Source: Tubulanus polymorphus
Lineage: Eukaryota; Animalia; Nemertea
Direction of reading: 5' to 3'
Length of the DNA stretch: 64,000 nucleotides
Assembly (NCBI RefSeq): GCF_964204645.1
Contig: NC_134034.1
Span: forward strand, 8,940,962 to 9,004,961
The stretch's first letter is position 1. Each line of letters begins with the position of its first letter. A program made the translations under genes and the position numbers. Shown piece after piece: positions 21,753 through 59,576 of this stretch. The notes beneath the pieces are model-generated. The model did not search any database and was not told where the DNA came from. It worked only from the letters and a program-made list of their open reading frames with translations.

Positions 21753-21781
21753 TTTAATAACATATTTTTATTAAAATTTGA

Positions 21782-29104: not shown

Positions 29105-30667
29105 AAATAGATCAAAAGATAAAATACCAACTTATAAATTTAGAATGTTAGCTAAAACATCTGAGAATTATATATCATTCCAATTTGGGTGTCTAAGATT
29201 TATAGATTCATATAGAGTTTTAAATATTTCATTAGATAACTTATCAAAATCATTAGTTGATGATGAATTGAAAATATTAAAGCAACACTACCCAAATAAT
29301 GATGATTTTCAATTAATGAGATATAAAGGAGCAATTCCATATTCATTTTATAAATCACATAATGATTTCAATATTACTGAATTATTGAAAGAACAATTCT
29401 ATGATGAATTAAAAAATGAATATGTTAAAGATGAAGTATATAATAGAACATTGAATATTTGGAATCATTTCAAAATAGAAAATCATGGGCAATTAGTAGA
29501 TTTATATTTAAAATCAGATGTATTATTATTAACCGATATATTCGAAAGGTTTAGAGATGTAAACCTAAAATATTTCAATATTGATCTTTGTCATTGTTAT
29601 TCAAGTCCAGGATTATCATGGGATTGTGGATTAAAATTTACAAATATAAAAATGGATTTGTTAACAAATATAGATCAATTATTATTATTTGAAAAATCTA
29701 TAAGAGGAGGAGTTTCAGTTGTATTAGGTGATAGATATTTCAATGTAAATGATAACCCCGGATATAAGTTATTATATATAGATGCAAATAATTTGTATGG
29801 TTGGGCAATGATGGAACCACAACCTTATGGAGTATTTGAATTAACTGAAGTTTTACAGAATGAAAATAATGATAAATTTGATTGGAAGAAAAGAATTCTA
29901 GATATTGCAGATGATTCAGATACTGGTTACTTCTTTGTTGTAGATTTAGAATATCCTGAACATATTAAATTTAAATCTAGAAATCTAGCTTACTGTCCCG
30001 AACATAAAACTGTAACTCATGAAGAATTATCAAATTATCAAAAAAGAATTAAACCCGAAAATCATATTCATACAGAAAAGTTAATGGTAACTCAAGAAGA
30101 TAAATATAATTATGTAGTACATTATAGAATGTTAAAGTTTTATTTGAATCAAGGAATGGTTCTAAAAAAAGTACATAGATATATTTCATTTAACCAATCT
30201 AAGTGGTTAGAAAAATATATAGATTTTAACACCAAACAGAGAACTAAAGCTAAAACTGATTTCGAAAAAGATTTCTTCAAGTTAATGAATAATGCATTCT
30301 ATGGTAAGACTTGTGAAAATATCAGAAATAGAAATGATATTGAGTTAGTTAGTAATGGTAAAAGAATTAGACAATTAGAATAACCAAAAGTGTAGTAGAA
30401 AAGAATATTCATTTCAAAGATTACATCAATTGTATATTCAATGAAGAAGTTAGAAAACATAAGATGAGATGTTTAAGATCTGAAGATCATGAAATGTTTA
30501 TTGAAGAAATTGAAAAGATAAGTCTAAACCCATTTGATGATAAAAGATATATTTTAGATGATGGAATTCATACAGTTGCTTATGGTTGTAATTTAGATGA
30601 ATACTTAAAATTTAAAAGATAAGAAACAAAAGAGAACGAGATAATGAAAAGAATTCTAACGTGTTAA
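29105..30667 (+). pseudogene. pPolB fragment with a ~450-bp internal deletion removing the DTDS motif
   Basis: ORF 29085-30383 matches A pPolB from NRSKDKIP. At ~30380 the sequence jumps to ATAACCAAAAGTGTAG (GITKSVV region). Confidence 0.9.
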
Positions 30668-30696
30668 TCAAATTTTAATAAAAATATGTTATTAAA

Positions 30697-31050
30697 ATGG
30701 AGAGTAAACAAGCACACAGTGAGAACAACAAAGTATTTCTAGGTAGAATTAAAGATATAACAAATGTAAAATCTGTAGATTATAAATTCAAAAAGTTAAC
30801 AGAATTAACAATCCATAAGAAATATCTAATTACAAATAGTGTTACAGTTACTAATAACTATGGAGATAAATTAGTTATACACTTAGAATATGAAGGATTA
30901 AAAGGAAATACATATAAATTCAGAACATATTTACCTGATAGATTTCATAGATTATCAAGTGAAGATCTAGAAGAATTATGTTCTGGAGATTTCTATTTCG
31001 TATACAAAGGTAAGAATGAAAAGGGGCACCATGAAATAGATTTCGAATAA
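30697..31050 (+). CDS. Copy of the 117-aa putative ssDNA-binding protein
   Basis: Near-identical to 21399-21752. Confidence 0.7.
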   Translation: MESKQAHSENNKVFLGRIKDITNVKSVDYKFKKLTELTIHKKYLITNSVTVTNNYGDKLVIHLEYEGLKGNTYKFRTYLPDRFHRLSSEDLEELCSGDFYFVYKGKNEKGHHEIDFE

Positions 31051-31066
31051 GAAAATATGTAAAATA

Positions 31067-31460
31067 AATAGGATTAAAAGAATACAGAATATTTGTTGAT
31101 TCTAGAAGGCTTACAAATTATAAATCTCATAATTTACTTGTACAATTAGATAGAGAATTCAAGAATTGTGTTGATTTAAAATTAGTTAATATAAGTTTAT
31201 GTAATTCTTTTTACAATGTATCGGATAAAACTTTTGAACATAGAGGGTTTATGATTTATATGAGAAATAAAGATAAATGGTTTGATATATTTTTAGAACC
31301 AGGATTATATAATTTAGAATCATAAGCGCAGGAAATTAATAGAAGAGCTCGGTTGAAAATCGGGGGCACTTCTGTATTTGAAATTAAATTTAGTAAAATT
31401 GATAGTACTAATAAAATAAGAATAAAGATATCTAATGAACAACATAAATTTATGGTAAAC
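31067..31460 (+). pseudogene. 5' half of minor capsid gene (start damaged, stop codon, truncated at (TA)n)
   Basis: LKEYRIFVDSRRLTNYKSHN... matches the mCPs of A and C. Confidence 0.8.
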
Positions 31461-42470: not shown

Positions 42471-42516
42471 TTGCAATGATGATACCTTAGTAGTTTGAAA
42501 ACAAACATTACATGAT

Positions 42517-42686
42517 AGTAATTAGGAGATGGCGTTTTCAGGCCAGAGGACGAGAGGACGAGACACCACTCATCACCACAAGTAATTTTTTTCCCTAATA
42601 AATGGGAGACAGTGAGTTCCAACTAGAAAACAATAATGTCAATAAAAATCAATATTATTGTCAATATTGTAAAAAATACATCGATA
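42517..42686 (+). repeat. Left terminal inverted repeat of C
   Basis: Reverse complement of 58823-58992, with one mismatch seen (position 10). Confidence 0.97.
42568..42604 (+). promoter_or_regulatory. Putative promoter motif ACTCATCACCACAAGTAATTT...TAAATG
   Basis: The same motif lies directly upstream of the ATGs at 42602, 43018, 43503 and 58907(-), with a partial copy before 53608. Confidence 0.65.
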
Positions 42687-42805
42687 AATCTTACATGGAA
42701 AATGTTAGAAATTATATTGATTCATTAGAAATAAAAGATACAATTGAAATTTTAGAAATATTACGTAGTAAAATTGTGACACACATAAACAGTGAGTGCG
42801 CGTAA
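42602..42805 (+). CDS. Mini-ORF made of two pPolB N-terminal pieces, starting inside the left TIR
   Basis: The first 28 aa are identical to the pPolB start, then join in frame to YMENVRNYIDSLEIKDTIEILE. Confidence 0.45.
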   Translation: MGDSEFQLENNNVNKNQYYCQYCKKYIDKSYMENVRNYIDSLEIKDTIEILEILRSKIVTHINSECA

Positions 42806-43017
42806 CAACAGCTGTGTGTGGATAGATCGATACAGTGAGTCTCTACTGAGAACGGTTATTAATGTGTGTGCTATTACTGTAGTACAGTGATTGCGTGTCA
42901 ACTGTACCAGGATAAATAGATGCTGTGAGGCTTGGGTGAGAACGGTTAATAGCGTGCTTGTTATATAGGGGGAAGTAATCCCCACTCATCACCACAAGTA
43001 ATTTGTTTTCCTTAGAA

Positions 43018-43344
43018 ATGGGAGATAGAAAAGCATTCTTAGCAACAATAAATAACAGAATAAAACCAGCAAAAAAACAATTTGAAATAAAAAAGTTAGT
43101 TGATGTTACAAAAGAAATTGAACATAAAATATTGAAATTAGAAAAGATAAAAACTAAATATGGAGAGAAAGTATCAGCTAATTTAAGCTACTGTAATGTT
43201 AGTACATCGCGAGAATTTAAAGTATTTTTACCCGATAAATGGGTTTCATTGAGTATGGAGGAATTGAAAGATTTAGTAGGATTTAAAATAATATATCATG
43301 GGAAAAATGAAGACGGTCATCATGATTTAGAAATTGTTGATTAA
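43018..43344 (+). CDS. Divergent homologue of the putative ssDNA-binding protein
   Basis: KKLVDV...KTKYGEKV...FLPDKW...IYHGKNEDGHH aligns with 21399-21752. ATG at 43018 follows the promoter motif. Confidence 0.7.
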   Translation: MGDRKAFLATINNRIKPAKKQFEIKKLVDVTKEIEHKILKLEKIKTKYGEKVSANLSYCNVSTSREFKVFLPDKWVSLSMEELKDLVGFKIIYHGKNEDGHHDLEIVD

Positions 43345-43502
43345 ATTTTAAAAAAAATAAATTAATAAAAATAATGAATATCTAGAATCCGAAATGACTT
43401 ATCTGGACAATTTAATTGCTCCACATAGATAGACAAAAGTAGTGAGATATTCAATTATTTTTTTTCATACTCATCACCACAAGTAATTTTTTTTCCTAAT
43501 AA

Positions 43503-44180
43503 ATGGAACTAGAACAACTACAAACTATCAATATTACAAATAACACTGGTGTTATAAACATATACTACAAGAAGTGTTCTAAATGTGAATTAGATAAATT
43601 AGCTTTAATAGAATTTAGTAAGCGTAAGATTAGCAAAGATGGTTTTCAAAATTGTTGTAAAACTTGTGCTAAACTATATACCAAACAATACCGAGAAGAT
43701 AATAGAGAAGCTTACAATGATTATATGACAGAATACATGAGAGAAAAATATAAAACAGATCTTAATTTTAGATTAAAACAATGTTTACGGTCTAGATTAA
43801 CGCAATTATTCAACAAAGAAACACATTCAGAAACACTATCTAATTTGTTGGGTTGTTCAGATGAATTTCTCAAATCATGGATAATATATCAATTCGACAA
43901 TAAAATGAATATAGATAATTATGGTGAATACTTTCATATTGATCATGTGTTGCCGATTTCTAAATTTGATATGAATGATGAATATGATAAGAAGCTAATC
44001 TGGAACTGGAGAAATTTAAGACCTTTAGAAAAGAAAGAAAATATAATTAAATCTAACAAACTAGATATGAAATTATATTTAGATCAACTGGAAAAAACAA
44101 AAAAATTTATTGAATTATGGAACAATAATCCAAATAATGAACGATACGTTGAGGAATTTGATATCAAGGATCCGAAATGA
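43503..44180 (+). CDS. HNH endonuclease with an N-terminal CxxC...CxxC zinc ribbon (large-DNA-virus type)
   Basis: KCSKC...SKDGFQNCCKTC, FRL...LRSRL, LGCS, HIDHVLP, NLRPL...ENIIKSNK. Confidence 0.85.
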   Translation: MELEQLQTINITNNTGVINIYYKKCSKCELDKLALIEFSKRKISKDGFQNCCKTCAKLYTKQYREDNREAYNDYMTEYMREKYKTDLNFRLKQCLRSRLTQLFNKETHSETLSNLLGCSDEFLKSWIIYQFDNKMNIDNYGEYFHIDHVLPISKFDMNDEYDKKLIWNWRNLRPLEKKENIIKSNKLDMKLYLDQLEKTKKFIELWNNNPNNERYVEEFDIKDPK

Positions 44181-44247
44181 CTTATCTGGATAATTTAATT
44201 GCCCCACAGTGAGATATTTAATTATTTTTTTGTTTTTTTCTAAAATA

Positions 44248-44650
44248 TTAATCCATTTTTTTTATTATAAATTTTGGAATTTCAGAAGTACTTTCATTTT
44301 TGATAGCAGTTGGTTCAGAATTACTAATATCATGAATTTTATTTGATTTCTTATACCAATTACACCCAATCAAAATGAATACAATTACAAATCCAACTGT
44401 AAAATATAAATATTTATCAAATATTCTACTATCAGAAGGAGTAGAAATAACAATATAAATATTTATCAAATATTCTACTATCAGAAGGAGTAGAAATAAC
44501 AATATTTTCACCATTTTTATTAACATTTTTATTACTTATTTTTTCTTTTACAGCTTTTTTATATTCTTGTGATTTAATTCCTAATTGCCGAGACCATTCA
44601 ATTTGTTTCTGAGTTCTCGGTTTTTTCTTCACTTCTTTCACCTCGCTCAT
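44248..44650 (-). pseudogene. Basic single-pass membrane protein frameshifted by a 49-bp tandem duplication
   Basis: 49-bp period at ~44403-44505. Removing one copy fuses ORFs 44432-44650 and 44248-44526 into a homologue of 10724-11092. Confidence 0.85.
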
Positions 44651-45188
44651 TTATTATAGAAATATTTTTACTTTCAATATTTGAAAATGTTATAACCCCG
44701 GTTGACAATAATGTCATAAATCCACCTAATTGAAATGATAAATATCCAATCCATTTATTTAATTCAGTCATAACTAAATAATCATTTTTTAAATCGGAAT
44801 ATAATCTATTTTCATCTTCAATTGGTAGTATATAATTACATAATTTACTATAACCTTTTACTACATTTTCTGATATCGCGTCATTAATTCTAGCTGTTCT
44901 CGCGGCTTCATAAATCTTAAATAATCTAATAATTTCATCTGATTTCATTGTGTCTAATTCATTATAAGTTAAATTTTTACTGACAAAATTTTTACATTTT
45001 CCAGATGCTATTAATATTTCTAATTGATGTTTACAATAAAGATAATATTCATAATTATTATTTGTTGTAACATTATTTAAAGCACCATCATCTGGAGTTA
45101 ATTTTGTTTCTGTTATTCCTAAATCATCTAAAGTTTTTTCAATTGGAACATCACCATTTTTAGATTTTATTTTCTTTTCACCTCCCAT
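44598..45188 (-). CDS. Conserved Polinton protein of unknown function
   Basis: 196 aa with a TAAATG start. Homologue at 10129-10731. Confidence 0.82.
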   Translation of the reverse strand: MGGEKKIKSKNGDVPIEKTLDDLGITETKLTPDDGALNNVTTNNNYEYYLYCKHQLEILIASGKCKNFVSKNLTYNELDTMKSDEIIRLFKIYEAARTARINDAISENVVKGYSKLCNYILPIEDENRLYSDLKNDYLVMTELNKWIGYLSFQLGGFMTLLSTGVITFSNIESKNISIINERGERSEEKTENSETN

Positions 45189-45214
45189 TTATATAACAAA
45201 CAAATTAGTTGTGT

Positions 45215-45472
45215 TGTTGCAACTAGAATTCAACTAGAATTTAACTAGAATTCAACTAGATTAACAAGCTAGTTGAAATATTGTTGTTTTTGTTTATTTC
45301 TAGTTACATTATAGTTGATTTTTGTTTCAACTACTAACAACTAGAATTCAACTAGAATGTAACTAGAATTAAACTAGATTAACAAGCTAGTTAAAATATT
45401 GTTAAATCTATTTGATTTTTGTTACAACTACTAATAACTAGAATTCAACTAGATTAACAAGCTAGTTGAATT
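45215..45472. repeat. Array of 11-bp CAACTAGAATT repeats with short hairpins
   Basis: Three clusters, each closing with AACTAGATTAACAAGCTAGTT. Confidence 0.85.
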
Positions 45473-46080
45473 TAAATAAATTCATATTTAAATGGGTGTT
45501 GTAATCTAAATAGTAATTTTGATCTTTTAATATTTTTCAACTTATCCATATATTCATTATGTAAATCATGTGGAATAATATCATTTTCCTCAAGTGCATT
45601 TTTCATCGATTTTCTATCTTTATTGTAGAATAAAACTAGAAATCTAATGTTTTCTCTAAAGTCTTTAACAATTGAATTATATTTTTGATTTAAAACCCAA
45701 GTTGTTATCCCAAAATGTCTGCCAGAAAAAGCTAAATAACATAACTCACTTTCTCTAACTTTTGAATCATGTAGATTAGCACAATCATCTATGATAAATA
45801 ATGTATTTGATCCTTTATAAATATCAATTGCTATTTTTATACAATTATCTAAATTTTCTTTTACTGTTTTAGGATCTAATATAATAAATTTATTATTTCT
45901 AGTAATATTTCTATCATAAGTTTGATTAAATTCATATGTTGGACAAAATAATACTATATTATCAAAATAGTTTTTGTAAACAGTTTCTAGTAAATTTAAT
46001 ATGAAGTGTGTTTTACCACAATTTGTTACACCAGAAATTAACATATTATGAGGCTCAAATATGAATAATTCCTTATTCAT
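45472..46080 (-). CDS. A32-like packaging ATPase
   Basis: GVTNCGKT, LFIIDD, GRH and LNQ motifs. Confidence 0.93.
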   Translation of the reverse strand: MNKELFIFEPHNMLISGVTNCGKTHFILNLLETVYKNYFDNIVLFCPTYEFNQTYDRNITRNNKFIILDPKTVKENLDNCIKIAIDIYKGSNTLFIIDDCANLHDSKVRESELCYLAFSGRHFGITTWVLNQKYNSIVKDFRENIRFLVLFYNKDRKSMKNALEENDIIPHDLHNEYMDKLKNIKRSKLLFRLQHPFKYEFI

Positions 46081-47208
46081 TTATATATTTTTAATTTTAC
46101 TTGATAATATCCATTCATTGAATTTATCTGGCCATCCAACCCATTTTACTAAAGAATATTCTTTTCTTTTAACAGTTTTTGTTTTTAGTACTTTTTCAAT
46201 TTTATATTCTTGTTCTAGATTTTCAGTAGTTAAACTTAATTCTTCTTCGTAAAAGTAGCCATCAACTTCTTCACCATCTAAATCTTCTAATTTATAGACA
46301 TATGGGTTTGTTGTTATTACCTTTTTTATTTTGTATATTTCTCTAGTAAAATTTCGATCGTATCCTTTGTCAAATATCTTTTTATACTTAGAAATTCTAA
46401 CATTTTGACCAACTTTAAATTTAGGTTCACCAAAATCATCTACAAGAAATGCTCCATATAAATTATTCCAAACAATTTCAGCATTTTCAGGTTTTCTAGC
46501 ATCAATAGGTTTCATTCCAATAGAAGAATGATAAGAATTATTATATCCTTCTATAAATTTTGGTAAAACATCAATCCATTTATAAGTATTATTTGCTGTG
46601 AAATATTTTGATATTCTTGTTCTCAATGTTCTATTAAATCGTTCAACAACTGCTGCTTTTTTATCCGATTTTGTTGAAAAATATTTAATATTATGAAAAT
46701 CTAAAAGTCTATGAACTAATGAATTATCAAATTCTTTTCCATCATCAAATTGAATTTTTTCTGGTTTTAGTTTACCACCTGAAAGAAATTTTCGTAAAAC
46801 ATGTGATTTTTGTGCAGCATCTTTTCTATAAAGCGGGAAGCTCCATACATAACGACTAAAAATATCAATTATATTCAATATCCACCAATAATCATTATTA
46901 TCTTTTTTAAGATTTTTCATATCAATTAAATCTCCTTGCCACTGTTGATCTACATAACTTACCATAGTTTTACGAGTTTTATATTTTCTAACAATTTTTT
47001 TATGTGTTGTATATGTTGGTTGTTCTAACATAAATTCATTTATATCTTTGTATTTAACTAAATTTTGTGGGATTATCTTATCTAATTTATCTTGTTTTAC
47101 TTTACGCCATATATTTTTAGTAGAAGAATAAGCAACCGAACTCTCAGGGTTGTAATATAAATTTCTTAAATATTGTTCTTTAGTATTAGGAGTTTTTTTA
47201 CCACTCAT
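46081..47208 (-). CDS. RVE integrase with chromodomain
   Basis: WQGDL, QFDDGKEF, VVERFNRTLR core. LVKWVGWPDKFNEWI chromodomain. Confidence 0.96.
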   Translation of the reverse strand: MSGKKTPNTKEQYLRNLYYNPESSVAYSSTKNIWRKVKQDKLDKIIPQNLVKYKDINEFMLEQPTYTTHKKIVRKYKTRKTMVSYVDQQWQGDLIDMKNLKKDNNDYWWILNIIDIFSRYVWSFPLYRKDAAQKSHVLRKFLSGGKLKPEKIQFDDGKEFDNSLVHRLLDFHNIKYFSTKSDKKAAVVERFNRTLRTRISKYFTANNTYKWIDVLPKFIEGYNNSYHSSIGMKPIDARKPENAEIVWNNLYGAFLVDDFGEPKFKVGQNVRISKYKKIFDKGYDRNFTREIYKIKKVITTNPYVYKLEDLDGEEVDGYFYEEELSLTTENLEQEYKIEKVLKTKTVKRKEYSLVKWVGWPDKFNEWILSSKIKNI

Positions 47209-47238
47209 TTATATATCCTTAATTTTAACTTTATATTT

Positions 47239-48492
47239 CTAATATTGAACACTATCTAATTGTGAATTTACAATATTTAATTGTGCGTCAGATATAATAT
47301 AAATATGCATTTTAAATGAACTTTTTAAATGAACTTTTAACTTTTTCATGAATAATTGTATTCCATCTTTAGTGTTCTGTAGTTTTTTTCCAGAACCATG
47401 TAATGAATTATCTTCAGTTGTTCTAAAATCTAACCATAATGCATATTTATTACCAGTATAATAATCAATTTGATTAATATTACAATTTTCAGATGATTTC
47501 ACTTTTTCGTTCATAAAATGTTTTCTAATTTCTGGCCATTGATCAATCATTCTCATTCCTTGGCAAAATATTTTATTCGCTATACCTTCGATAGTTATTT
47601 CTACTTTTGTTATTTCAGGATTATAATAATTGTCAACATTTATTGCGCCATTAGTATACGTTCCAATGGTAAAAAATATTAATATACCTTTAATAGATCT
47701 TCTAGGAAAGTTAATATTCTCATTAATTATTTCATCATTTGCATTAATAGTTACAGTTTTAAATTTATCAATATAATCATATAATAATGAAAACCCTTGA
47801 TTGTATTGAGTTTGAATTATACTTGCAATATTTTCATCAGTTACTGTATCATATTCTAAACATATATTCGATAATTTATAACTCATATCTTTAACAACGC
47901 TAGATAATACAATTTCATTTACAGGAGCAAATGTTATCTCAAATATAATATCTTCTTGAATTGCGTATTTATATAAAGGTGCATTATTATTTATCAATTC
48001 AATATCTAATGGAATTTTATATTTGCTTCCATATATACTTTTTATCAATTTATCTACATCATTTGTTAATATTGCGCTATTAGCTTCTGATCTTAATTTA
48101 TTTTGGTTTTCTGATTGGATTCCTTGAAATATCATATTATTTCTGTTTTCTTTAGTTAACCATAAATCTTTATAATGCATAAATAAATTATAATCATCTA
48201 ATGAGAAAACTGTTTCTGGACCAATCTTTATTGTTAACTTTTTAATCAAATATCTTCCAACATTATCAACGACATAATTATTATTATTACCGATTACTTT
48301 TATATCGGCTGATAAATAAATACTGTTTGGAACATAAAAAGTATTTTGTGTTAATCGAGGAATTCTAACATATAAAATTTCATCGGGATTAATATTTGAA
48401 GGGTTATGAGTAATTATATGATGTGATCTTTCTGCTTTAATAGCATTAGATATTCTAGAAATCTTAGAAGGACTTATATAACTCCCACTCAT
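47239..48492 (-). CDS. Major capsid protein (inferred)
   Basis: 417 aa, near-identical to 14748-15995. Confidence 0.78.
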   Translation of the reverse strand: MSGSYISPSKISRISNAIKAERSHHIITHNPSNINPDEILYVRIPRLTQNTFYVPNSIYLSADIKVIGNNNNYVVDNVGRYLIKKLTIKIGPETVFSLDDYNLFMHYKDLWLTKENRNNMIFQGIQSENQNKLRSEANSAILTNDVDKLIKSIYGSKYKIPLDIELINNNAPLYKYAIQEDIIFEITFAPVNEIVLSSVVKDMSYKLSNICLEYDTVTDENIASIIQTQYNQGFSLLYDYIDKFKTVTINANDEIINENINFPRRSIKGILIFFTIGTYTNGAINVDNYYNPEITKVEITIEGIANKIFCQGMRMIDQWPEIRKHFMNEKVKSSENCNINQIDYYTGNKYALWLDFRTTEDNSLHGSGKKLQNTKDGIQLFMKKLKVHLKSSFKMHIYIISDAQLNIVNSQLDSVQY

Positions 48493-48512
48493 TTATTAAA
48501 CAAAAAAATTAA

Positions 48513-49949
48513 TTATTTATTTTTTATCATATTCACTAAACCAAAAATAATAGCACTTACAACTGTGATTAAAAATAAAATAATATGTTCAGCAGCAAAG
48601 TTAATAATGTTTCCTGCAGATTTCAATATAAAACCAACAATTGAAGCAATAACTCCTGGTAAAGCTGCAGCAGATTTCTTTGATAGTTCCCATAAATATT
48701 TTGCTAATTTCTTTAAACCATCTTTAACTTTATCTTGTATAGAATTATTATCATTCGGGGGTTTATCCGGTTTATTGGGAGTAGGAGTAGATTTCAAAGC
48801 ATTTGATATAGCTAAACCAATTGTTGTAAATAACATAGTTACAGCTGTTAGAATTGAAAGAATTGTTATTCCTTCTAATTTGAATAATAACTTTATTCTA
48901 TCTTTCAATGATATTCTAGAATCTGGTTTTATTAGAAATCTTTTAAAAACATCTTTTAATCTATCAATATTATAATCATATGATTTTAATAATGATTTAA
49001 TTTCTTCTTTTTGTAATTCTATGTTATATTTTAAATCATCTTTTTCTTTTTCTAAACGAAATTCTTTTTGCCTATATTCTATTTCATCAATTACTTGATG
49101 ATCTAAATCAGACTTTAATTGTTCTATTTCTTTATTTTTATCAGTTAATTCTTTTTCTAAAGTTCTAATTTTTTGATCTCTTATACTTTTATTATGTACA
49201 ATTTTATCAGCTTCATTTCTTATACTAATAATTTCTCTAATTGCTTCATCAGAAAATATATTTAAATCTTCTAATTGTTGATCTGTTGCATCAAGTAATC
49301 CATTTGGTAAAAGTTTTTCAGTTTGAACTTCTCTTGAATTAGGTTTACTAGTTTTGGAATTAATAACTTCTTTAGGAATTTTTTTTTGTCTTAAATTTTC
49401 ATTAATTATCTCAAAAAATTTAGCATTTCTTTGTTTAAATTCTTTTATATTATAATCTCTTTCTTCTTGTGTAACATCAGTTATAACATCATCAATGATT
49501 TTCTTAATTCTATCTGGTTTAAATAAATTAAAAGTTGATTGTGTTATTATTTTATCGCTACTTTTAAGATTTGAAATCTTAAAATAATAGTCGCCTTTCA
49601 ATTTCCAATAATAATCACCATTTAAATATTTTAAATCTTTTACTAAATAATTCATACCTTTATTTGTTATATTGAAACCAGATCTTTTTAATATTGGTTT
49701 AAATTCATGAATAATTTCATTATAATTGTATTCTTTTTCTGTTATTTCTGGTACTTCATTTTCAATACTTATCTTTGAACGTGTTTTATCAATATATTGA
49801 GGTGTAGTTAAATTAGAATTATATGCTGATTCATCATTATTATCAATATTAGTTTCATTAAAATCGGATCGTGGTTCATCATCAATATATCCTTCATTAT
49901 CATTTCCCATTTCTCCCATTTCATAATCTTCTCCACCTTCTACATCCAT
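48513..49949 (-). CDS. Acidic/coiled-coil protein with C-terminal hydrophobic segments
   Basis: Shares the MDVEGGED start and the C-terminal third with 16036-17724. Confidence 0.8.
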   Translation of the reverse strand: MDVEGGEDYEMGEMGNDNEGYIDDEPRSDFNETNIDNNDESAYNSNLTTPQYIDKTRSKISIENEVPEITEKEYNYNEIIHEFKPILKRSGFNITNKGMNYLVKDLKYLNGDYYWKLKGDYYFKISNLKSSDKIITQSTFNLFKPDRIKKIIDDVITDVTQEERDYNIKEFKQRNAKFFEIINENLRQKKIPKEVINSKTSKPNSREVQTEKLLPNGLLDATDQQLEDLNIFSDEAIREIISIRNEADKIVHNKSIRDQKIRTLEKELTDKNKEIEQLKSDLDHQVIDEIEYRQKEFRLEKEKDDLKYNIELQKEEIKSLLKSYDYNIDRLKDVFKRFLIKPDSRISLKDRIKLLFKLEGITILSILTAVTMLFTTIGLAISNALKSTPTPNKPDKPPNDNNSIQDKVKDGLKKLAKYLWELSKKSAAALPGVIASIVGFILKSAGNIINFAAEHIILFLITVVSAIIFGLVNMIKNK

Positions 49950-49965
49950 TTATATAATAAAAAAA

Positions 49966-51267
49966 TTAAAATTTAAAATATAACATTCCTCCGATTACAA
50001 TTCCTATACAAGTTATAGCTAATTTAGTATTTTCATGGGATTTATTATCATCATTTAGTTTAATTATATCATGTTGAATTTTATTAGTTCTATTATTTTC
50101 TGTAGTATTGTAATCTTTTATTTTGGAATCATTATCCAATTTAATATTCTTAGTTTTAGTTTCAGTTGATTGAATATGTTTTTTATTTTTTTCACCTTCC
50201 ATTAATTTTGGAGCAGTAATAATCTTTTTATTTATATCATTTAATCCAAATGAATTATTTATTGTTGCAGTTTTAATTAGATTATTATAACCAATTATAT
50301 TTCCCATCTTTAATACTAAATCATTAGAAATAATTAATAGATTAGGGCCTATACAATAATTTAGTCTTACATGAGATTAATCTAAATAATTTTGATATCT
50401 TATAATGTTTTCTGGAATCGATCTATTTTTATCATCATGTATGGAATCTTCAAATAAAACTTTAAACTGTTTCTGCGCATCGAATGAAGTGTTATCATTT
50501 CCAATTATTGGGGATCTTGTTTCAACTTGAGCGCCTAGAATACATATCAAATAAATTCTAATAGATTGATTTATTCTTTGTATACCTGATTTTGTAAAAC
50601 CTTCACCATTTTCTAAAATGAAATTAACCCAACCATTATTATTATCAATTTTATAATTATGATAAGCTGAAATTCTATGCATATAATCAATTCTTTTTAT
50701 TTCAAACTCTTCACCAACACCTTGCAATTTACCATGCGCTCTAAAATCGGAATTAATATTTATATTAAATTCATTACATATTTTATAAAACTTGGATATA
50801 TTAATATTATTATCCAATTCTTTAAAATATTTAGACCCGGGTAAAGGACATTCTAATTCATTTAATATTATTCTGATTTGAAAATATGTGTGAAATCTAA
50901 ATATTGTGTGAATTAATTTTAAATCAGAATACTTCAAATTTTTATCTAAGTTATTTAAATGATCATTCCAACTTATTCCACATCCTGTTGTTGCACAATA
51001 AACAGCAAAATCTAATTGGTTCTGCCAATACTTCATATTAGATTTTACTTTATATATATGATATTCATCTCGAGTAAAAGTAACTTCATATGTATTAAAT
51101 ATATTTTCCATTTTAGAAATAAAAAACTGTGATTCATTAACATAAATTTCTAAATTAGTTAATGAATTTAAAACTATATTTTTATATGTAATGTTTTTCT
51201 TAAAATCTATTGCTGGAATATTATATTTAATTGATTTATTATATTGGAAAGCTTTTGGAAACCCCAT
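49966..51267 (-). pseudogene. CATTGCGIS-motif membrane-anchored protein interrupted by one nonsense codon
   Basis: TAA at 50377-50379 where A has AAA. ORFs 50377-51267 and 49966-50307 are in frame. Confidence 0.85.
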
Positions 51268-51283
51268 TTATATAATTAAAAAA

Positions 51284-51718
51284 TTAATAATTTATTAATT
51301 CTTTTAATAATTTATCTTGTTCTTCAACTGTTATATGACCATTTAAACTTATTATATAATCTAGTGTGTTCTTTAATTTATTAATTTCTTATATATTAGT
51401 TTTGATTTTTTCTTTATTACTTTTTATATTTAATTTTGAACTTATACCAGTTAAAACACTTGAACTTAATCCTAATACACCAATTGATATAGCTAAAGGT
51501 GTTAATGGACTAAATATTGCTAGAAATGTTATTACAGAACTAATTGTAACCGAACCACTTATAATCAAATAATATATAATTTTACTTTTTAAATATTTTT
51601 TCTTTTTTATCTTTAAGTCACTTTCAAATTCTAATATTTGTTTTTCTAAATATGTTTTTAATTTAGTTTTATTTATATCATGAGGAATAATATCAATACT
51701 ATCAACTTTATCTTCCAT
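51284..51718 (-). pseudogene. Two-helix membrane protein with a premature stop at 51389
   Basis: A reads NIKEINK here, while C has TAA. Homology continues to the A stop position. Confidence 0.75.
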
Positions 51719-51737
51719 TTATTTAGAATAAAAATTA

Positions 51738-52160
51738 CTAATTAGTAAACTTATAAGCAATAAATATAACAATAACAGTTCCACCTAAAATCCATATTAT
51801 TTCATATTTCTGTTGTTCTTTACTTGGGGTATAATAATCTGATAATTTAGGTTTGTATAGATGTAATTTTTCTTTATTTGTTACTGCGTTATATAAACTC
51901 ATTGCATCATCAACTGATTGAAAATCTCTATGTGAAATCTTCTGATCATATAATTCTTTATTGATGTAATCCATATAGTTTTGCCTCTTTTCTCTATATT
52001 CTTCTGCAGCTTTATTGTATTTCTCTAACGCTAAGTTATGTCTTCTTTGTTCTCCTAATGAACTATTTTTATCAATATGTTTAAATAAATAACCACCACC
52101 AGTAAATGCTAAAGCGTTAACAATTGCCGATCCTATAATAGTTATAATTGCAGAAGCCAT
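51738..52160 (-). CDS. 140-aa hydrophobic structural-module protein
   Basis: Near-identical to 19576-19998. Confidence 0.85.
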   Translation of the reverse strand: MASAIITIIGSAIVNALAFTGGGYLFKHIDKNSSLGEQRRHNLALEKYNKAAEEYREKRQNYMDYINKELYDQKISHRDFQSVDDAMSLYNAVTNKEKLHLYKPKLSDYYTPSKEQQKYEIIWILGGTVIVIFIAYKFTN

Positions 52161-52188
52161 TTATTTAGCAAAAAAAATTACACACTTC

Positions 52189-52410
52189 TTATATGGGAGG
52201 AATATATTTTTGTTTTTCCAAATAATCAATAGTTAAATTAGATAAAGTAACTGCTAACGTTAATTTCAAAATATCATTTATATCAAATCTATCAACATTA
52301 ACACTTCCCATTTTGAATACTTTTTTTAATACCATTGAATAACCAACCGTTCCAACTGATAGTAATGCGCCATTATATAATCCAGTTATTATCCACTTAT
52401 TATCACTCAT
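52189..52410 (-). CDS. 73-aa hydrophobic protein
   Basis: Near-identical to 20023-20244. Confidence 0.8.
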   Translation of the reverse strand: MSDNKWIITGLYNGALLSVGTVGYSMVLKKVFKMGSVNVDRFDINDILKLTLAVTLSNLTIDYLEKQKYIPPI

Positions 52411-52767
52411 TTATTTATCAAAAAAATTACTATCATCAAAATATTTAGTTAACTTAGTGATGATTATTTCAACATTTATTTCATTACTAGTTTCATTTGT
52501 ATATATTTCAATTATTATTTTTTTGATATCATCGATGATAAAATCTTCATCTAATTCATAAAATCTTAAAGATTCTCTAATTAAATTAGTAATCTTTTCT
52601 ACATTAAAAGTTTCTTTATCTATTGTTGTTTCATACTCAAATGTTGTTTCATTAGAAAATGCAATATTTTTGATATGTGTAATTACATCATTCATATTAA
52701 ATTTCATTTCTTTCTCACGTTTAAAATCAAAACCAAAACATATACTCGGTCCAACAGTTATATTCAT
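52411..52767 (-). CDS. 118-aa acidic protein
   Basis: Near-identical to 20245-20601. Confidence 0.8.
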   Translation of the reverse strand: MNITVGPSICFGFDFKREKEMKFNMNDVITHIKNIAFSNETTFEYETTIDKETFNVEKITNLIRESLRFYELDEDFIIDDIKKIIIEIYTNETSNEINVEIIITKLTKYFDDSNFFDK

Positions 52768-52783
52768 TTATATAATGAAAAAA

Positions 52784-53539
52784 TTACTCTTTACATCTTA
52801 TAACTAATTCATAAATTACAGGGAAATTATTTAAATCAATTAAGTATCCATTATGATTTCTTATTTCTAATTTAAAATTATTAAATTGAGGAATACAAGG
52901 TTTGAAATCACATTCAGCTAAATTATAATTTATTTGCGTTCCAAATTGTTTAACATTCTTCAATGGTAAAATGTTTAATATACTAGAATTACAAGTTATA
53001 TCTTTAGTTGCTTCGAATGTTTTTGTAGGATCGATTAAATTGCAATAAATATAAAAGTGTGTAAAAGTCATTAAATTTGTATAAGTTTCGATACTTGAAT
53101 AATCTCTATCCGGGAGAATTCCAAACAGTTTAGCTAAAGGTTTTCTTACTAGAAATCTATGTTGTTCATTAGTTAACTTTATTCTTATTTTATTCGAACT
53201 ATCATTTTTGATAAATTTAATTTCAAATCTAGCAGCTGCACCCATTTTTAAACGAGCTCTTCTATTAATTTCTTGCGCTAATGTTTCTAAATTATATAAT
53301 CCTGGTTTTAGATAAAGATGAAACCATTTATTCAAATTTCTAACATGAATTTTAAAAGCTAAATGATCAAGACTTTTATTTGATATATTATGAAAAGAAT
53401 TACATAAACTTATATTTACTAATTTTAAATCTACACAATTCTTAAATTCTCTATCTAATTGTACTAATAAATTATGAGATTTATAATTTGTAAGCCTTCT
53501 AGAATCTACAAATATTCTGTATTCTTTTAATTCTACCAT
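52784..53539 (-). CDS. Minor capsid protein (penton, single jelly-roll)
   Basis: 251 aa. IFVDS, LKPGLYN, FYIYCNLI, ILPL and LEIRNHNGYLIDLNNFPV pattern typical of Polinton/PLV pentons. Confidence 0.8.
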   Translation of the reverse strand: MVELKEYRIFVDSRRLTNYKSHNLLVQLDREFKNCVDLKLVNISLCNSFHNISNKSLDHLAFKIHVRNLNKWFHLYLKPGLYNLETLAQEINRRARLKMGAAARFEIKFIKNDSSNKIRIKLTNEQHRFLVRKPLAKLFGILPDRDYSSIETYTNLMTFTHFYIYCNLIDPTKTFEATKDITCNSSILNILPLKNVKQFGTQINYNLAECDFKPCIPQFNNFKLEIRNHNGYLIDLNNFPVIYELVIRCKE

Positions 53540-53607
53540 TATTTATAACATAAAAAAATTACCGCTCATCACTAAAAATTAATTTTAATAAAATTTTTCC
53601 TTAATAA

Positions 53608-54909
53608 ATGGAAGAGAAGATAGAATGTGAAATTTGTGGTGAACTTCTAAGAAAAAGTAATAAGGCTCGACATATGAAAAAACATGATGAAAATTATAAA
53701 CCCCCTAAAATAAACTGTCCAAAATGTAATCAATTATTCTCAAGAAATTATGTTAAAAAACATTCAGAGAAGTGTAGAATTAATGGCGCAACGGCTAATG
53801 TTGGTAATAATTCTGCTGAAGTTGAACCTGAAGTTATTTGGAAAAGACCTTTTTTATTTTATAACAAGAATAATGTAAAGAATAATTTCTGTGAGCCTTG
53901 TCAAGTAAAATATAGCCCTGACAATATAGAAGATTGGGAGAATCATCAATTTTGTAAAGCACACATAGATAAAATTTCTAATAAATTTGAAACTGAATTC
54001 AATGAAAGAAAAAATAATTTATTAGAAAAAATAAAATATGAGAAAACGTTACCAGATAATGAAGAAACAGTTGAAAAGTTAGAAAAACAATATAATGAAT
54101 TAACAAGAAAAACATATTATTGTAAATATTGTAAATTGATTATTACAACAAGTAATTCAAATCTACATAATAGAACAATAAAACATAAAGAAAACGTAAG
54201 AAAATACCAAGAGCTTAATGAAGATCTATTACCAATAAATTATAAACAAAAATGCCCACAATGTAGTTATGCGACCTTAAGGCAAGAAGGTACTGTGTTA
54301 TTTTGTGTTGATTGTGGATGGCAAAAGAATTTATGGGGTGAAGAAAAAACTAGAAATTTTCTTATAGATCCAAAATTAAATTATCTTGATGAAATTTTTA
54401 AAATATTTTCTATAGAAGATCATACACCAGAATATATGCAATGGCTTGAAAAAATGAAAATAATAGAAAATAAAAATGGTGAAATAACTAAAAAAGATAT
54501 TATAAAAACAATTATTCCACCAACATTTAACACAAAAGAAAAGAAAATGTATTTATATTTATTATTTAACGATTATTATGAAAAACCTAAATTAACAGAA
54601 GAAGATATGGAAAATATAAAAAAAATATTTAAACAAATATTAATGTATCATTTGGAAAATAGAATAACAGATTCAATAAATTATGAATTTTTTTTAAATA
54701 AGATTGTAAATTATTTAAACCTAGATATTATAATTCCATTTGATGAATTAACAAACAAAAAGAAACAAAGAGAGCGAGATGAAATGTGGAACAAGATAGA
54801 ACTTTATTTAAATGAGAAAAATGGAATGGAAGAAGAACCTGAACAATTAAATGAAAATGAAGAAGCTAATAGTGATTTCGAGTATGATGATATTGATTTT
54901 ATGTTTTAA
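53608..54909 (+). CDS. Multi-zinc-finger protein with an acidic tail
   Basis: CEIC..HMKKH, CPKC..HSEKC, CEPC..H..H, CKYC..H..H and CPQC..CVDC motifs. Confidence 0.85.
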   Translation: MEEKIECEICGELLRKSNKARHMKKHDENYKPPKINCPKCNQLFSRNYVKKHSEKCRINGATANVGNNSAEVEPEVIWKRPFLFYNKNNVKNNFCEPCQVKYSPDNIEDWENHQFCKAHIDKISNKFETEFNERKNNLLEKIKYEKTLPDNEETVEKLEKQYNELTRKTYYCKYCKLIITTSNSNLHNRTIKHKENVRKYQELNEDLLPINYKQKCPQCSYATLRQEGTVLFCVDCGWQKNLWGEEKTRNFLIDPKLNYLDEIFKIFSIEDHTPEYMQWLEKMKIIENKNGEITKKDIIKTIIPPTFNTKEKKMYLYLLFNDYYEKPKLTEEDMENIKKIFKQILMYHLENRITDSINYEFFLNKIVNYLNLDIIIPFDELTNKKKQRERDEMWNKIELYLNEKNGMEEEPEQLNENEEANSDFEYDDIDFMF

Positions 54910-57900
54910 TGACCATAAGGTAATGTTTTTATACCATCATCTAAAATATGCCTTTTATCATCAAATGGATTTAAACTAGTTTTTTCAACTTCATTAATGT
55001 ACATCTCATGATCTTCTGATCTTAAACAATTCATTTTGTGTTTCATTAAAATTGATTTATATAAACACTTTATATAATCTTGAAATTCTATATGTTTATC
55101 AACCACATGTTTTGTTATTCCTTTTAACTTTTTAGCTTCATGATCTTTTGTTCTGTAACTATACATTTTACTTCTTATCCCAACAAATTCAATCATTTCA
55201 TCACCTCCTAATTCATCTTTAAACTTACCAGGAATCTTTTTATTATCATTACTAAACAATTCATGATCTTTAGGGTAATTGCTAAAGTCGAAATAATGTT
55301 TCAATGTTTTTAAGTCTTTTGTTATATCATTTGTCTTTATTTTTAGTATGTACGCGTCAATATCAAAATATAATATTTCAATGTGTTTTTCCCCAAAATG
55401 GGGTTGTAATACATTATAATAAAAATCGTACATTAATAATTTTGAAACTTCTAAAACTGTTGAACCAATGAAAATGGGTTTATTAAATTTCATGGATGTT
55501 CTTTTCAATTTTACCGCTGTTAAATAATCTTCGAATCTTTTATTTCCTAGATGTCTAGGACTTGATTGTAAATGCCTTAATCTTTCATAATTATTTACTA
55601 ATTCAATGTCGTTTCTATTACGAATATTCTCACAAGTTTTTCCATAAAAACTATTATTCATCAATTTAAAACAATCTTTTTCGAAATCAGTTTTTGATAT
55701 TGTTCTCTGTTGAGTATTGAAATCTATATATTTTTCTAACCACTTCGATTGATTAAATTCAATATATCTATGTACTTTCTTTAATTTCATTCCTTGTTTT
55801 AGATAAAATTTTAACATTCTATAATGAACAATATAATTGTATTTATTATTTTGAGTAAGTATTAATTTTTCTGTAAAAACATGATCTTTCGGTTTTATTT
55901 TCTTCTGGTATTCACTTAAATAACTATCATCTACAGTTAAATGTTCTGGGCAATAAGGTAAGTTTCTTGTTTTAAACTTTATATTTTCAGGATATTCTAA
56001 ATCAACTACAAAGAAATAACCAATTGGTGCTTCATCTTTTAAACTCGCAATTGCGCTTTCCCAATCAGTTTTATCATCATTTTCAACTTCTGTTAATATA
56101 AAATTTTTATATGGTTGAGGTTGCATCATTGCCCAACCATATAAATTATTGGCGTCAATATATAATAATTTATATTCATCATTTGCTTTAAAATACCTAT
56201 CTCCCATAACACCACTAATTCCACCTCTAATTGATTTTTCAAATAATAAAACCATATCTGGTTCTTTTAATAAATCTAATTCTACATTTGTATATTTTAA
56301 ACCACATTGCCAGGTTAAACCAGGACTAGAGTAGCAATAACAAGGATCAACATTAAAATGGTTTAGATTAACTTCTCTAAACTTTTCAAATATGTCAGCC
56401 AATATCATAACATCTGATTTTAAATATAAATCAACTAATTCGCCATGATTTTTCATCTTAAAATGGTTCCAAATATTTAATGTTCTATCAAAAACTTTGT
56501 CTTTCACATACTCCTCTTTTAATTTATCATAAAATTGATCTTTTAATAATTCTGTTACATTAAAATCATCATGTGTTTTATAAAATGAATAAGGAATTGC
56601 GCCTTTATATCTCAATAATTTAAAATCTTGGTCATTTGGATAATAATATCGAGTTATAACAAAATCATTATCAACTAATGATTTTGATAAATTATCTAAT
56701 GAACTTGCTAGAAATCTATAAGAATCTAAAAATCTAATGCAACCAAATTGAAATGAAATATAATTTTCAGATGTTTTAGCTAATAGTTTAAAATCATATT
56801 TTCTTACATTTGCTTCGTTCATAGCATTAAATTCTTCTATTTCTTGATTAATTGCGCCCAATTTTCCCGATAATTGTTTTATAAATAGATGGGTATCATA
56901 TCCTGATAAATTATGAAATAATATTGGTACGAAATTTACTTTTTTAGCTTGTAAATTGCAATCTTCATGAGCAGCTCCACGATATTTTGAATTTAAATGA
57001 TCATGATCTCTAACTCTTTTATCAAATGAATAAAAACGTTTTTCACAATAACAACAATGAGTTGCATAATTAAAATCAATTTCATCTTCTTTTGTCATAA
57101 CTATTCTTTTATTTTTGTTTAATAATTTTGCAAAATCACTTTCTAATTCAATCATTTTATCACAAAAATCATTAACTACATTTTCACCTCTAAAAGAAAT
57201 ATATTGACTTTCATATAATTCGGGATAATTTGATTTTATATAAATTCCATAAGCAGCGGCTCTTTGATGAACTTTTTTAATTGTATTTATAATTGGTGGG
57301 TCTTGAATTATATCTTCATTTAATTCATTTCCTTTATCCATTGATTTAAATAATTGCTTTTTGTTATATATTTCTTTTCTATCTTGATCAGTTAATTCTT
57401 TATTCAACGATTCAAAATCCCCATAAATTACAAATGGAACAATATTTTTAAATTTATGATTAGTAAATTTCAATTTATAATCTTTTTCTGTTGGCATTAT
57501 TAATTTACAAAAATCTTTATTATCACATAATTCTTTATGTTTTAATAATGTATTCTCAGTTCTAAATTTAGATAAACATTTTCTACATAGATAAATTTTA
57601 TGGCTGTTAAAATCACTTTCTGTTCTAAAGAATAAATCAATTTGTTTTAACCACATATAATGTTCATTTTCATCTTTTTTGTAATATAACAAATCTATAG
57701 CATTTTCATCATCATAATATTCTGTTAAATATAAAGCTTCCAATGTATAATCTTTAATATTTTCACCTTTTGTCTTTGGTAATTGCATTAATTCGAATAC
57801 ATTTATTTTTAAATTATTAATTTTTTCTATTTTGGGTATCATTTTTATAGTTACTGGATATTGATCAATTTTATATAATGTTTCATATTTCCGGTAATCT

Positions 57901-58907
57901 GTTATTCTATAAACATGTTCTTCTGTTGGATGTAAGCAACTAATAATTGACCATAGAAAACATTTATTATCTTCATTTTGAACATTTATTACTGCTTTTG
58001 TTGTAAATGGTAATTTAATATAAGATGATGCTTTAATATCCTTTTCTGTTGTAAAGTTTGAATCATTTTTAAACATTTTATTACTTTTTGATGTTTTATT
58101 CCTTTTTGTATTATAAACATTTAAATCTAAATATATAATTTCATTCAATGTTAAGCCAGAACCCTCAAAATATCTTTCTTCAATATGACGTTTAAATTCA
58201 TTTAATATTTTTTCTAACTTCTCTTTTATTTGTGTTTTTGAAATTATTTCTTCAGAGAGTGTTTGAATATTATAATCCATTTTTTCTTCTGACTTTATAA
58301 AACTTACTTTCCCAGAGATACTAATTTTTGGATATTCAACATCTGTTATCAAATCTAGTATTTTTTCTATTATTTCATTAAATTTATTATAATCTTCTAT
58401 TGTTGTACCTTTAAAAAATCTAAATATAATAGCTGCAGGACCAATTTTACTATGTAATGTTTCTAAGATTTCAATTGTATCTTTTATTTCTAGTGAATCA
58501 ATATAATTTCTAACATTTTCCATGTAAGGTTTATTTGAAATGGATTTAGTTTTTGAAGTTGATTCTTTTACTTGTTGAGGTTTATTATCAAAATATTCTA
58601 ATCCTAAAACATTATTACTCAAATTTTTATAATGTTTTTGTGATTCGAGATGTCTATTATAATTCCTTTTTACTATAAATTCATTACAAACTTCACATTT
58701 TATTTCATCCACATTCATATTTTCTAATCGTTCTTTTCTTTCATTGGAATTTTCTGGAGTTTCAAAATCTATTACATTTTTTATATGATTTGCAGTTTTT
58801 TCATGTCGTGTTTTATTAGATGTATCGATGTATTTTTTACAATATTGACAATAATATTGATTTTTATTGACATTATTGTTTTCTAGTTGGAACTCACTGT
58901 CTCCCAT
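54906..58907 (-). CDS. Full-length protein-primed family B DNA polymerase with two N-terminal C2H2 fingers
   Basis: 1333 aa. NEDNKCFLW, YGDFES, EndoVII-like insert, FHNLSGYD, YIDANNLYG and KLMNNSFYGK motifs. Motif C reads YFDIDA. Confidence 0.96.
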   Translation of the reverse strand: MGDSEFQLENNNVNKNQYYCQYCKKYIDTSNKTRHEKTANHIKNVIDFETPENSNERKERLENMNVDEIKCEVCNEFIVKRNYNRHLESQKHYKNLSNNVLGLEYFDNKPQQVKESTSKTKSISNKPYMENVRNYIDSLEIKDTIEILETLHSKIGPAAIIFRFFKGTTIEDYNKFNEIIEKILDLITDVEYPKISISGKVSFIKSEEKMDYNIQTLSEEIISKTQIKEKLEKILNEFKRHIEERYFEGSGLTLNEIIYLDLNVYNTKRNKTSKSNKMFKNDSNFTTEKDIKASSYIKLPFTTKAVINVQNEDNKCFLWSIISCLHPTEEHVYRITDYRKYETLYKIDQYPVTIKMIPKIEKINNLKINVFELMQLPKTKGENIKDYTLEALYLTEYYDDENAIDLLYYKKDENEHYMWLKQIDLFFRTESDFNSHKIYLCRKCLSKFRTENTLLKHKELCDNKDFCKLIMPTEKDYKLKFTNHKFKNIVPFVIYGDFESLNKELTDQDRKEIYNKKQLFKSMDKGNELNEDIIQDPPIINTIKKVHQRAAAYGIYIKSNYPELYESQYISFRGENVVNDFCDKMIELESDFAKLLNKNKRIVMTKEDEIDFNYATHCCYCEKRFYSFDKRVRDHDHLNSKYRGAAHEDCNLQAKKVNFVPILFHNLSGYDTHLFIKQLSGKLGAINQEIEEFNAMNEANVRKYDFKLLAKTSENYISFQFGCIRFLDSYRFLASSLDNLSKSLVDNDFVITRYYYPNDQDFKLLRYKGAIPYSFYKTHDDFNVTELLKDQFYDKLKEEYVKDKVFDRTLNIWNHFKMKNHGELVDLYLKSDVMILADIFEKFREVNLNHFNVDPCYCYSSPGLTWQCGLKYTNVELDLLKEPDMVLLFEKSIRGGISGVMGDRYFKANDEYKLLYIDANNLYGWAMMQPQPYKNFILTEVENDDKTDWESAIASLKDEAPIGYFFVVDLEYPENIKFKTRNLPYCPEHLTVDDSYLSEYQKKIKPKDHVFTEKLILTQNNKYNYIVHYRMLKFYLKQGMKLKKVHRYIEFNQSKWLEKYIDFNTQQRTISKTDFEKDCFKLMNNSFYGKTCENIRNRNDIELVNNYERLRHLQSSPRHLGNKRFEDYLTAVKLKRTSMKFNKPIFIGSTVLEVSKLLMYDFYYNVLQPHFGEKHIEILYFDIDAYILKIKTNDITKDLKTLKHYFDFSNYPKDHELFSNDNKKIPGKFKDELGGDEMIEFVGIRSKMYSYRTKDHEAKKLKGITKHVVDKHIEFQDYIKCLYKSILMKHKMNCLRSEDHEMYINEVEKTSLNPFDDKRHILDDGIKTLPYGH

Positions 58908-58992
58908 TTATTAGGGAAAAAAATTACTTGTGGTGATGAGTGGTGTCTCGTCCTCTCGTCCTCTGGCCTGAAAACGCCATCTTCTAATTACT
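58823..58992 (-). repeat. Right terminal inverted repeat of C (contains the pPolB promoter and first 28 codons)
   Basis: Reverse complement of 42517-42686. Confidence 0.97.
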
Positions 58993-59576
58993 CATGATAA
59001 ATTTCCGAAATTCGAAGTCAAGTGTTCAGACTCGGGGATATCTCAATTGGTCAGTTACTGACCATCGTGGTGTCACCATTGTGGTCTATAGCTCAAATGA
59101 AACATGTGGAACCGAGCGTTAAGTCATTTCCTGGAGTGACGTGATCCAAAAATGCCCTAACTGGAAAAGGCAGTCTCTCAATTGGATGAAACCAAATCGG
59201 ACAGGACAATTAAAATTTGGGAAGGTCACAGGTAGTGGACTTTCTACGAAGCCCACGCGGTGAGCGTATTAATATGAAATCTTTTTTTAAACCACCATGT
59301 ACCACGAAGTAATTAGCATCGTTGTAAGCACTTGAAACAGCCATTAACCACTTGAAACTGTCAGATCAAACATCATACCGCATCCCCGCAAAGAGGGGTG
59401 GTTCAGCAAACCGGAGTTTTCATTGGCCTCTCTAGACTACCCCGCCAGTACGGGTAGCCGAGCAAACCGGAAAACTCATAATGTACGCACCAACCGGCAC
59501 AGGCCTAACACTTTTTGTCAACTGTGTGTACCGTAGTAGGCTATCGATAATCACCTGATACTTTTCTGTCGTTTGT

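Follow-up and report, generated by a model that had tools for sequence, protein, structure and literature searches.

Nearly all genes of an integrated virus-like element in the genome of the nemertean Tubulanus polymorphus begin behind the same signal, a run of T followed by TAAATG. The element, here called C, occupies positions 42517..58992 of a 64,000-nucleotide (nt) stretch (contig NC_134034.1, positions 8,940,962 to 9,004,961, forward strand), which we call the window and in whose coordinates all positions are given. The start motif is a real, conserved and lineage-specific promoter-like signature in a Maverick. As this near-universal signal is shaped like a poxvirus late promoter, the elements are likely transcribed with machinery borrowed from a large DNA virus. 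By analogy with known systems, we favour the view that the motif is a promoter on which a helper nucleocytovirus, when it co-infects, acts with its RNA polymerase, and that the lifestyle of the element is virophage-like. The initial annotation of this sequence had proposed a virophage-like virus. An integrated virus-like element is indeed present, but by its gene content it is an integrated Maverick/Polinton and does not belong to the virophage class Virophaviricetes.

The start motif in elements C and A

For the counts in C and A, open reading frames (ORFs) of at least 60 amino acids (aa) were called from the first ATG. TAAATG was present at 15/19 ORF starts of element C, compared with 34/533 (~6%) of other ATGs (Fisher p = 6e-14). 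In element A, a related copy in the same window, the values were 11/17 and 33/582 (Fisher p = 8e-10). In-frame methionine codons were excluded from this background, because TAA is impossible there. When the 40 nt upstream of the starts were shuffled 5000 times as a composition-matched control, TAAATG appeared 1.3 times on average and 8 times at most. All exact sites listed in the initial annotation (15/15 in C and 13/13 in A) were recovered, with GAAATG at 43018 and TAAATAATG at 53539; altogether, C contains 49 TAAATG sites. The T-runs held up as well, since at least four T preceded 11/15 (C) and 7/11 (A) TAAATG starts versus 8/34 and 6/33 TAAATG sites that are not starts. So did the short intergenic distances, with 8/17 upstream gaps in C measuring 0-30 nt. 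The ORFs are uninterrupted, which is consistent with the suggested absence of introns.

A single cassette is common to the starts 42602, 58907 and 43503 (and to 43018), which leaves 13 independent exact sites in C. It lies in the terminal repeat (42566-42609), and its copies are found at 42982-43025, ending in GAAATG, and at 43469-43506 (plus strand), before the endonuclease gene. The cassette copies thus stand ahead of two unrelated genes, and within the terminal repeat the starts have TAAATG, too. Two cassette copies were dropped before the matrix tests described below, leaving 13 C starts. Elements A and C are not independent samples either, because they are 76-93% identical.

Upstream profile

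The conservation extends beyond TAAATG. In C, A was found at -18 in 18/19 starts, T at -14 to -11 in 15-17/19 and A at -4 in 19/19. T at -13 was present in 11/13 independent C starts and in 40/55 starts of the clade delimited in the next section, versus 8/34 internal TAAATG sites, and T at -12 in 49/55 clade starts. A matrix for the bases between -25 and -4, built from 25 starts of distant clade members, discriminated the 13 C starts from the 34 internal TAAATG sites with an area under the curve of 0.97. With composition removed, the matrix peaked at shift 0 and exceeded 10000/10000 within-spacer shuffles.

In late promoters of vaccinia, TAAAT overlaps the start codon and a T is conserved ten bases ahead of it; the intermediate ones are A-rich upstream (excerpts of PMC11980589). 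The poxvirus-late shape put forward in the initial annotation is recovered here, with TAAAT overlapping the start and a T-rich core centred ten bases upstream, in which -13 corresponds to the conserved T of vaccinia. This can be seen for example in the 20-nt gap upstream of the capsid gene (48493..48512, minus strand), which consists entirely of AA, the T-run, a spacer and TAA, followed by ATG. At three starts, those of the ATPase, of the integrase and at 44650, an A-rich region takes the place of the T-run. As a further poxvirus signal, depletion of T5NT (the early terminator) was considered and rejected: the ratio of observed to expected occurrences (O/E) in clade coding sequence was 0.42, with T5NV, T6 and A5 equally depleted, indicative of general homopolymer avoidance.

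Distribution among related elements

The capsid alignment comprised 187 metagenomic relatives, 80 of which were analyzed. TAAATG stood at 55/65 ORF starts of the 16 loci whose capsids share 50% identity or more, and at 6/7 starts of three further loci (L073, L076 and L080), whereas the remaining 61 Maverick loci had it at 4/321 starts; these counts overstate independence, as near-duplicate loci (L006/L007, L009/L010, L011/L012) were included. Twelve of the 61 loci have a G+C content (GC) below 40%, and TAAATG was present at only 1/40 of their starts; conversely, loci of 40% and 44% GC retain the motif. Since first-ATG calling favours TAA-ATG, capsid starts anchored by homology were used as a control. 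TAAATG was found at 13/14 anchored starts of clade loci versus 2/33 of the others (L076 and L080), and position -3 was T in 14/14 clade loci and a purine in 30/33 others. A quick tree of 59 capsids was calculated by maximum likelihood without bootstrap, after exclusion of loci with the capsid ORF shorter than 300 aa or not found; in it, both window copies and 14/16 loci formed a single group (Shimodaira-Hasegawa-like approximate likelihood ratio test, SH-aLRT, 97). L016 and L070 were placed in the clade by identity only.

Several accessory genes of C are common to non-clade relatives. The closest named relatives are distant (38% for a bivalve capsid, 37% for a lacewing polymerase), and no relatives were found in IMG/VR or in GTDB genome contigs. 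Capsid relatives at 53% identity (P0046 and P0147-P0154) come from short contigs of several assemblies that carry the label Bartonella; these contigs probably represent contamination from a eukaryotic host.

Individual relatives showed further peculiarities. A relative with a capsid of 74% identity carries a deoxynucleoside kinase gene behind the same motif (L001:10340-10981; PF01712, E 2e-31). Among the non-clade elements, a Maverick with no TAAATG starts has a weak match, below the cut-off, to VLTF3, a late transcription factor of poxviruses (L028:6543-7049, E 6e-4), and in another relative a large helicase gene replaces the polymerase (L019:9970-13596). Polymerase relatives P0180, P0192 and P0218, one of them 54% identical, matched an intein (PF14890), and two of these also LAGLIDADG. 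Inteins are unusual in elements of animal genomes.

Proposed mechanism and candidate helpers

The suggestion of the initial annotation that these elements are transcribed by the machinery of a poxvirus-like helper can be upheld in part. The promoter-like shape agrees with it, and no RNA polymerase subunit, TBP or TFIIB was detected among the element ORFs; the specificity for poxviruses did not stand, since iridovirus-related bins share the start motif (see below). If the motif works as in vaccinia, transcription would start inside the AAA of TAAAT, and slippage of the polymerase would add a 5' poly(A) leader replacing the T at -3. Slippage on the initiator with addition of a poly(A) leader has been described both for vaccinia and for yeast cytoplasmic elements (excerpts of PMC6211774). 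T at -3 might thus be tolerated because the added leader would replace it; no encoded leader or Kozak context would then be needed, and gaps of 16-30 nt would suffice. Mavirus-type integrated elements share the late promoter of their helper (excerpts of PMC10945749). By analogy, an integrated copy of C may be silent until the helper infects, upon which all genes, polymerase and integrase included, would be switched on together in the helper's factory.

As for the identity of the helper, a poxvirus relative is a possible but tentative candidate, an iridovirus-like virus seems rather unlikely and another nucleocytovirus improbable. An exact-motif scan of IMG/VR returned 12 single matches, none of them recognisably poxvirus. 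Two were in giant-virus bins (G001 and G002, loci L093-L096), and most others had no motif at gene starts. In the two bins, TAAATG was present at 8/27 and 6/16 unselected starts, respectively, versus 4-7% of all ATGs, and G001 had a T-run at -15 to -9. The full pattern was counted 192 times in G001 versus 110 in the control, with no excess in G002 (108 versus 126), and the capsid genes of both bins were without an exact TAAATG start. From the resemblance of their sequences, we take the capsid proteins of G001 and G002 to be iridovirus-type. G001 was classed as Pimascovirales PM_01 (excerpts of PMC8575486). The TAAATG start motif is therefore not diagnostic of poxviruses, as iridovirus-related bins have it.

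Several observations weigh against helper-driven transcription. Long branches L076 and L080 bear the motif and fall outside the clade in the unbootstrapped tree. A scan of the elements and of clade ORFs revealed no poxvirus-type gene, and several small ORFs with no assigned function could be transcription factors. AATAAA is not depleted in AT-rich non-clade Mavericks either (O/E 0.92), and these have it at only 1/60 convergent gene ends; splice-signal counts did not differ between clade and non-clade loci, and TAAAT was not depleted inside coding sequence. Moreover, transcription of coral polintovirus genes takes place in samples for which excerpts of PMC11131425 report no helper, and yeast elements that are helper-free and equipped with a polymerase of their own likewise use TAAAN initiators (excerpts of PMC6211774).

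On balance, the clade-restricted signature sets a likely helper-dependent group apart from the other Mavericks, and it leads to the prediction that the host harbours a large DNA virus not discovered so far. More speculatively, there might be a distinct and widespread Maverick clade that gave up transcription by the host and came to live as a virophage on undiscovered poxvirus-like invertebrate viruses; its integrated copies would give animals an inducible defence against viruses, and its signature would predict both helper dependence and helper kind. We put this forward tentatively, as a scenario that may well turn out otherwise. If it is true, virophage-type defence would reach beyond protists to hosts with large genomes, which are probably animals; the signature would then be a sequence-only marker for helper-dependent Mavericks and the kind of their helper.

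Alternative explanations

The motif could also be a private core promoter read by the host nuclear polymerase, perhaps together with an element-encoded factor, in which case mRNAs would be nearly leaderless and a helper unnecessary. Integration occurs in the nucleus, several zinc-finger and unassigned ORFs are present, TATAA is the commonest 5-mer ahead of ATG in the relatives (21/43), and expression of coral polintovirus genes (excerpts of PMC11131425) fits this explanation too. We nevertheless consider it rather unlikely. Apart from the missing match to TBP or TFIIB, a TATA box is normally located 25-30 nt ahead of the start site (excerpts of PMC5294985), and such spacing would place initiation inside the ORF. 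With no leader added, T at -3 would be a poor translation context, and the non-clade relatives keep a purine. The dense internal AATAAA (56 occurrences within the 12.6 kb that C devotes to coding sequence, not depleted) also speaks against nuclear transcription, although AATAAA tests cannot separate it from cytoplasmic transcription because non-clade Mavericks behave alike.

Alternatively, the promoters may be of genuine nucleocytovirus type but a relic, either because the lineage now spreads helper-free or because the copies in the window are dead. Decay is evident in A and B (the latter a fragment described below), and in C itself one gene is split and another shortened. However, C was inserted recently, as indicated by its 99% identical repeats and intact target duplication, and the motif persists across relatives with capsids only 50% identical, for which continuing selection is needed; a relic is therefore improbable.

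A signal for translation, i.e. re-initiation or coupling on polycistronic RNA, would account for the sites where TAA is the stop codon of the upstream gene (46080 and 52410), for the 0-30 nt gaps and for two 16-nt gaps at which the stop of the upstream gene supplies the conserved AA at -18/-17. Yet only 2/15 TAAATG sites in C are such stop-start pairs, the motif is present at 11/12 starts with a divergent upstream neighbour and at starts inside the terminal repeat, and a T-run fixed 10 nt upstream would be unexpected under coupling. Stop-start coupling was rejected as the cause, and so was Kozak context; as a whole, a translational role appears very improbable. Finally, it is hardly conceivable that the motif arises by chance from 76% A+T and first-ATG calling or from the poly(A) signal of the upstream gene: TAAATG is frequent in C, AATAAA overlaps many of the sites and an in-frame TAA makes the following ATG first by construction, but composition is ruled out by the upstream shuffles, the AT-rich non-clade loci and the matrix with composition removed, first-ATG calling by the homology-anchored capsid starts, and overlap with a poly(A) signal by the presence of AATAAA at 0/10 convergent gene ends in the clade.

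Structure and genes of element C

The window consists of three A+T-rich blocks (~22-26% GC) amid flanks of ~36% GC. Element C, which is full-length, measures ~16.5 kb with ~24% GC and is flanked by a 6-bp target-site duplication, CATGAT (left 42511..42516, right 58993..58998). Its 175-nt terminal inverted repeats, 99% identical, are located at 42517..42691 (containing the promoter cassette and the start 42602) and 58818..58992 (minus strand, with the pPolB promoter and the start 58907); the element begins with AG and ends with CT. The short ORF at 42602-42805 is assembled from pieces of the polymerase N-terminus. Together with these repeats and a target duplication within the 5-8 bp range, element C has the gene set that characterizes Mavericks/Polintons, namely pPolB, rve integrase, A32-like ATPase and double jelly-roll capsid.

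On the plus strand, an endonuclease VII/HNH-like gene (43503..44180; phrog_1035, E 5e-15) has a TAAATG start. Most of the other genes lie on the minus strand. The A32-like packaging ATPase (45472..46080; PF04665, E 4e-13) and the rve integrase with a chromodomain-like end (46081..47208; PF00665 above the cut-off) have TAAATG starts with A-rich upstream regions, and TAA of the ATPase start doubles as the integrase stop codon. Short-repeat non-coding stretches beside the ATPase gene (45190-45470 in C and 12834-13517 in A) are possibly an origin or terminator region. Other genes have a T-run and TAAATG at the start: the double jelly-roll major capsid protein (47239..48492), a conserved Maverick protein with no assigned function (48513..49949) and four small genes (109, 140, 73 and 118 aa; 51389..52767), each preceded by the signal. 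Between them, another conserved Maverick gene (49966..51267) is split in C into two ORFs (296 and 113 aa) with TAAATG at the first only; in element A it is a single 459-aa ORF. The gene at 52784..53539, whose start TAAATAATG is preceded by a T-run, likely encodes the penton (minor capsid protein): its top match is the mavirus penton (E 1.5e-8), with a model scoring only 64 in the predicted local distance difference test (pLDDT) and a TM score of ~0.3. A zinc-finger protein gene (53608..54909, plus strand) with a T-run and TAAATG start is divergent from it. The protein-primed polymerase, pPolB (54906..58907, minus strand; PF03175, E 3e-18), has 2551 homologues at E<=1e-100.

The capsid model (pLDDT 86.5) had its best Foldseek matches in PBCV-1 and iridovirus capsids (E 1e-16), with mavirus ranking 43rd and below. 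By sequence, the relatives of the capsid belong to Mavericks and are surrounded by Maverick genes; the capsid thus does not appear to be of the virophage-type lineage. In sequence searches against solved structures the capsid gave no match, and the best E values for two small ORFs were 0.18-0.83. An adenovirus-like maturation protease was not detected in the element ORFs by Pfam, PHROG or crude motif matching, nor among 55 non-clade ORFs scanned.

Element A, fragment B and the flanks

Element A (~9000..25600, ends not found) is a relative of C, rearranged and in part decayed, that has the same start motif. Its starts at 9175 and 19555 now open just 4 and 23 codons, the integrase (11099) and pPolB ORF (25456) starts are without the motif, and those at 13890 and 21752 read TAAAATG. 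Fragment B (29100..31460, plus strand) is a broken inverted copy of the polymerase and penton region of A. At 7690-8004, just 3' of a 129-nt palindrome (7405-7672), lies a small fragment that derives from an element and has TAAAATG at its start.

The flanks are gene-poor and repeat-rich, with no long ORFs besides repeats and fragments, and Rfam gave no match in the window. A host repeat that contains internal units of 73 nt is present in inverted copies at 4408-5678 and 36027-37447, and a tandem duplication, 97% identical with ~4.5 kb spacing, at 33179-35818 and 37713-40532. A Thr-rich, mucin-like low-complexity stretch on the minus strand (3520-3800) is possibly a host exon.

Comparison with known systems

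Element C resembles other Mavericks/Polintons (adintoviruses, Polintoviricetes; PMC8502044 and bioRxiv 10.64898/2026.06.19.733378) in its 16.5 kb size, inverted repeats, 6-bp duplication and core genes. It differs from them by the lack of a detected maturation protease, which is usual in group 1 and variable in group 2, and by the T-run and TAAATG at nearly all starts, which 61 related loci do not have. The word 'promoter' is absent from the main texts of PMC8502044, PMC11131425, PMC13215967, bioRxiv 10.64898/2026.06.19.733378, 10.1101/2023.08.22.554363 and 10.1101/2024.03.23.586382, and we found no paper on TAAATG or a late promoter in Mavericks, subscription journals and preprint supplements being outside the search.

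With late and intermediate promoters of vaccinia and mpox (excerpts of PMC11980589 and PMC5294985), C shares TAAAT over ATG and the T-run centred ten bases upstream, and its minority of A-rich upstream regions appears to resemble their intermediate class. In contrast to these viruses, the signal of C sits in a 16-kb integrating element with no detected polymerase and includes an extra conserved AA at -18/-17. Mavirus and type-4 endogenous mavirus-like elements (EMALEs) of Cafeteria (excerpts of PMC10945749) are likewise integrating and have pPolB, an rve integrase and a late promoter motif of giant-virus type. The capsid lineage and the motif itself differ, however, and helper and reactivation were shown there, while for C they are only inferred.

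Polinton-like viruses found in entomopoxvirus occlusion bodies are proposed to be poxvirus parasites, and one of their capsid lineages adjoins Maverick group 2 (excerpts of PMC11296320). Set against C by description, they are ~12 kb in size, all with a protease and some with no integrase, and were linked to the poxvirus by co-purification (same excerpts); 'promoter' occurs 0 times in the main text and supplement of that paper. The yeast elements pGKL1/2 also use a TAAAN initiator, which in yeast produces 5' poly(A) leaders by slippage, but they encode their own poxvirus-like polymerase (excerpts of PMC6211774), none of which was detected in C. Promoter-sharing virophages and poxvirus-associated polinton-like viruses are thus already known, whereas a late-promoter signature in Mavericks is, as far as the literature found goes, apparently new.

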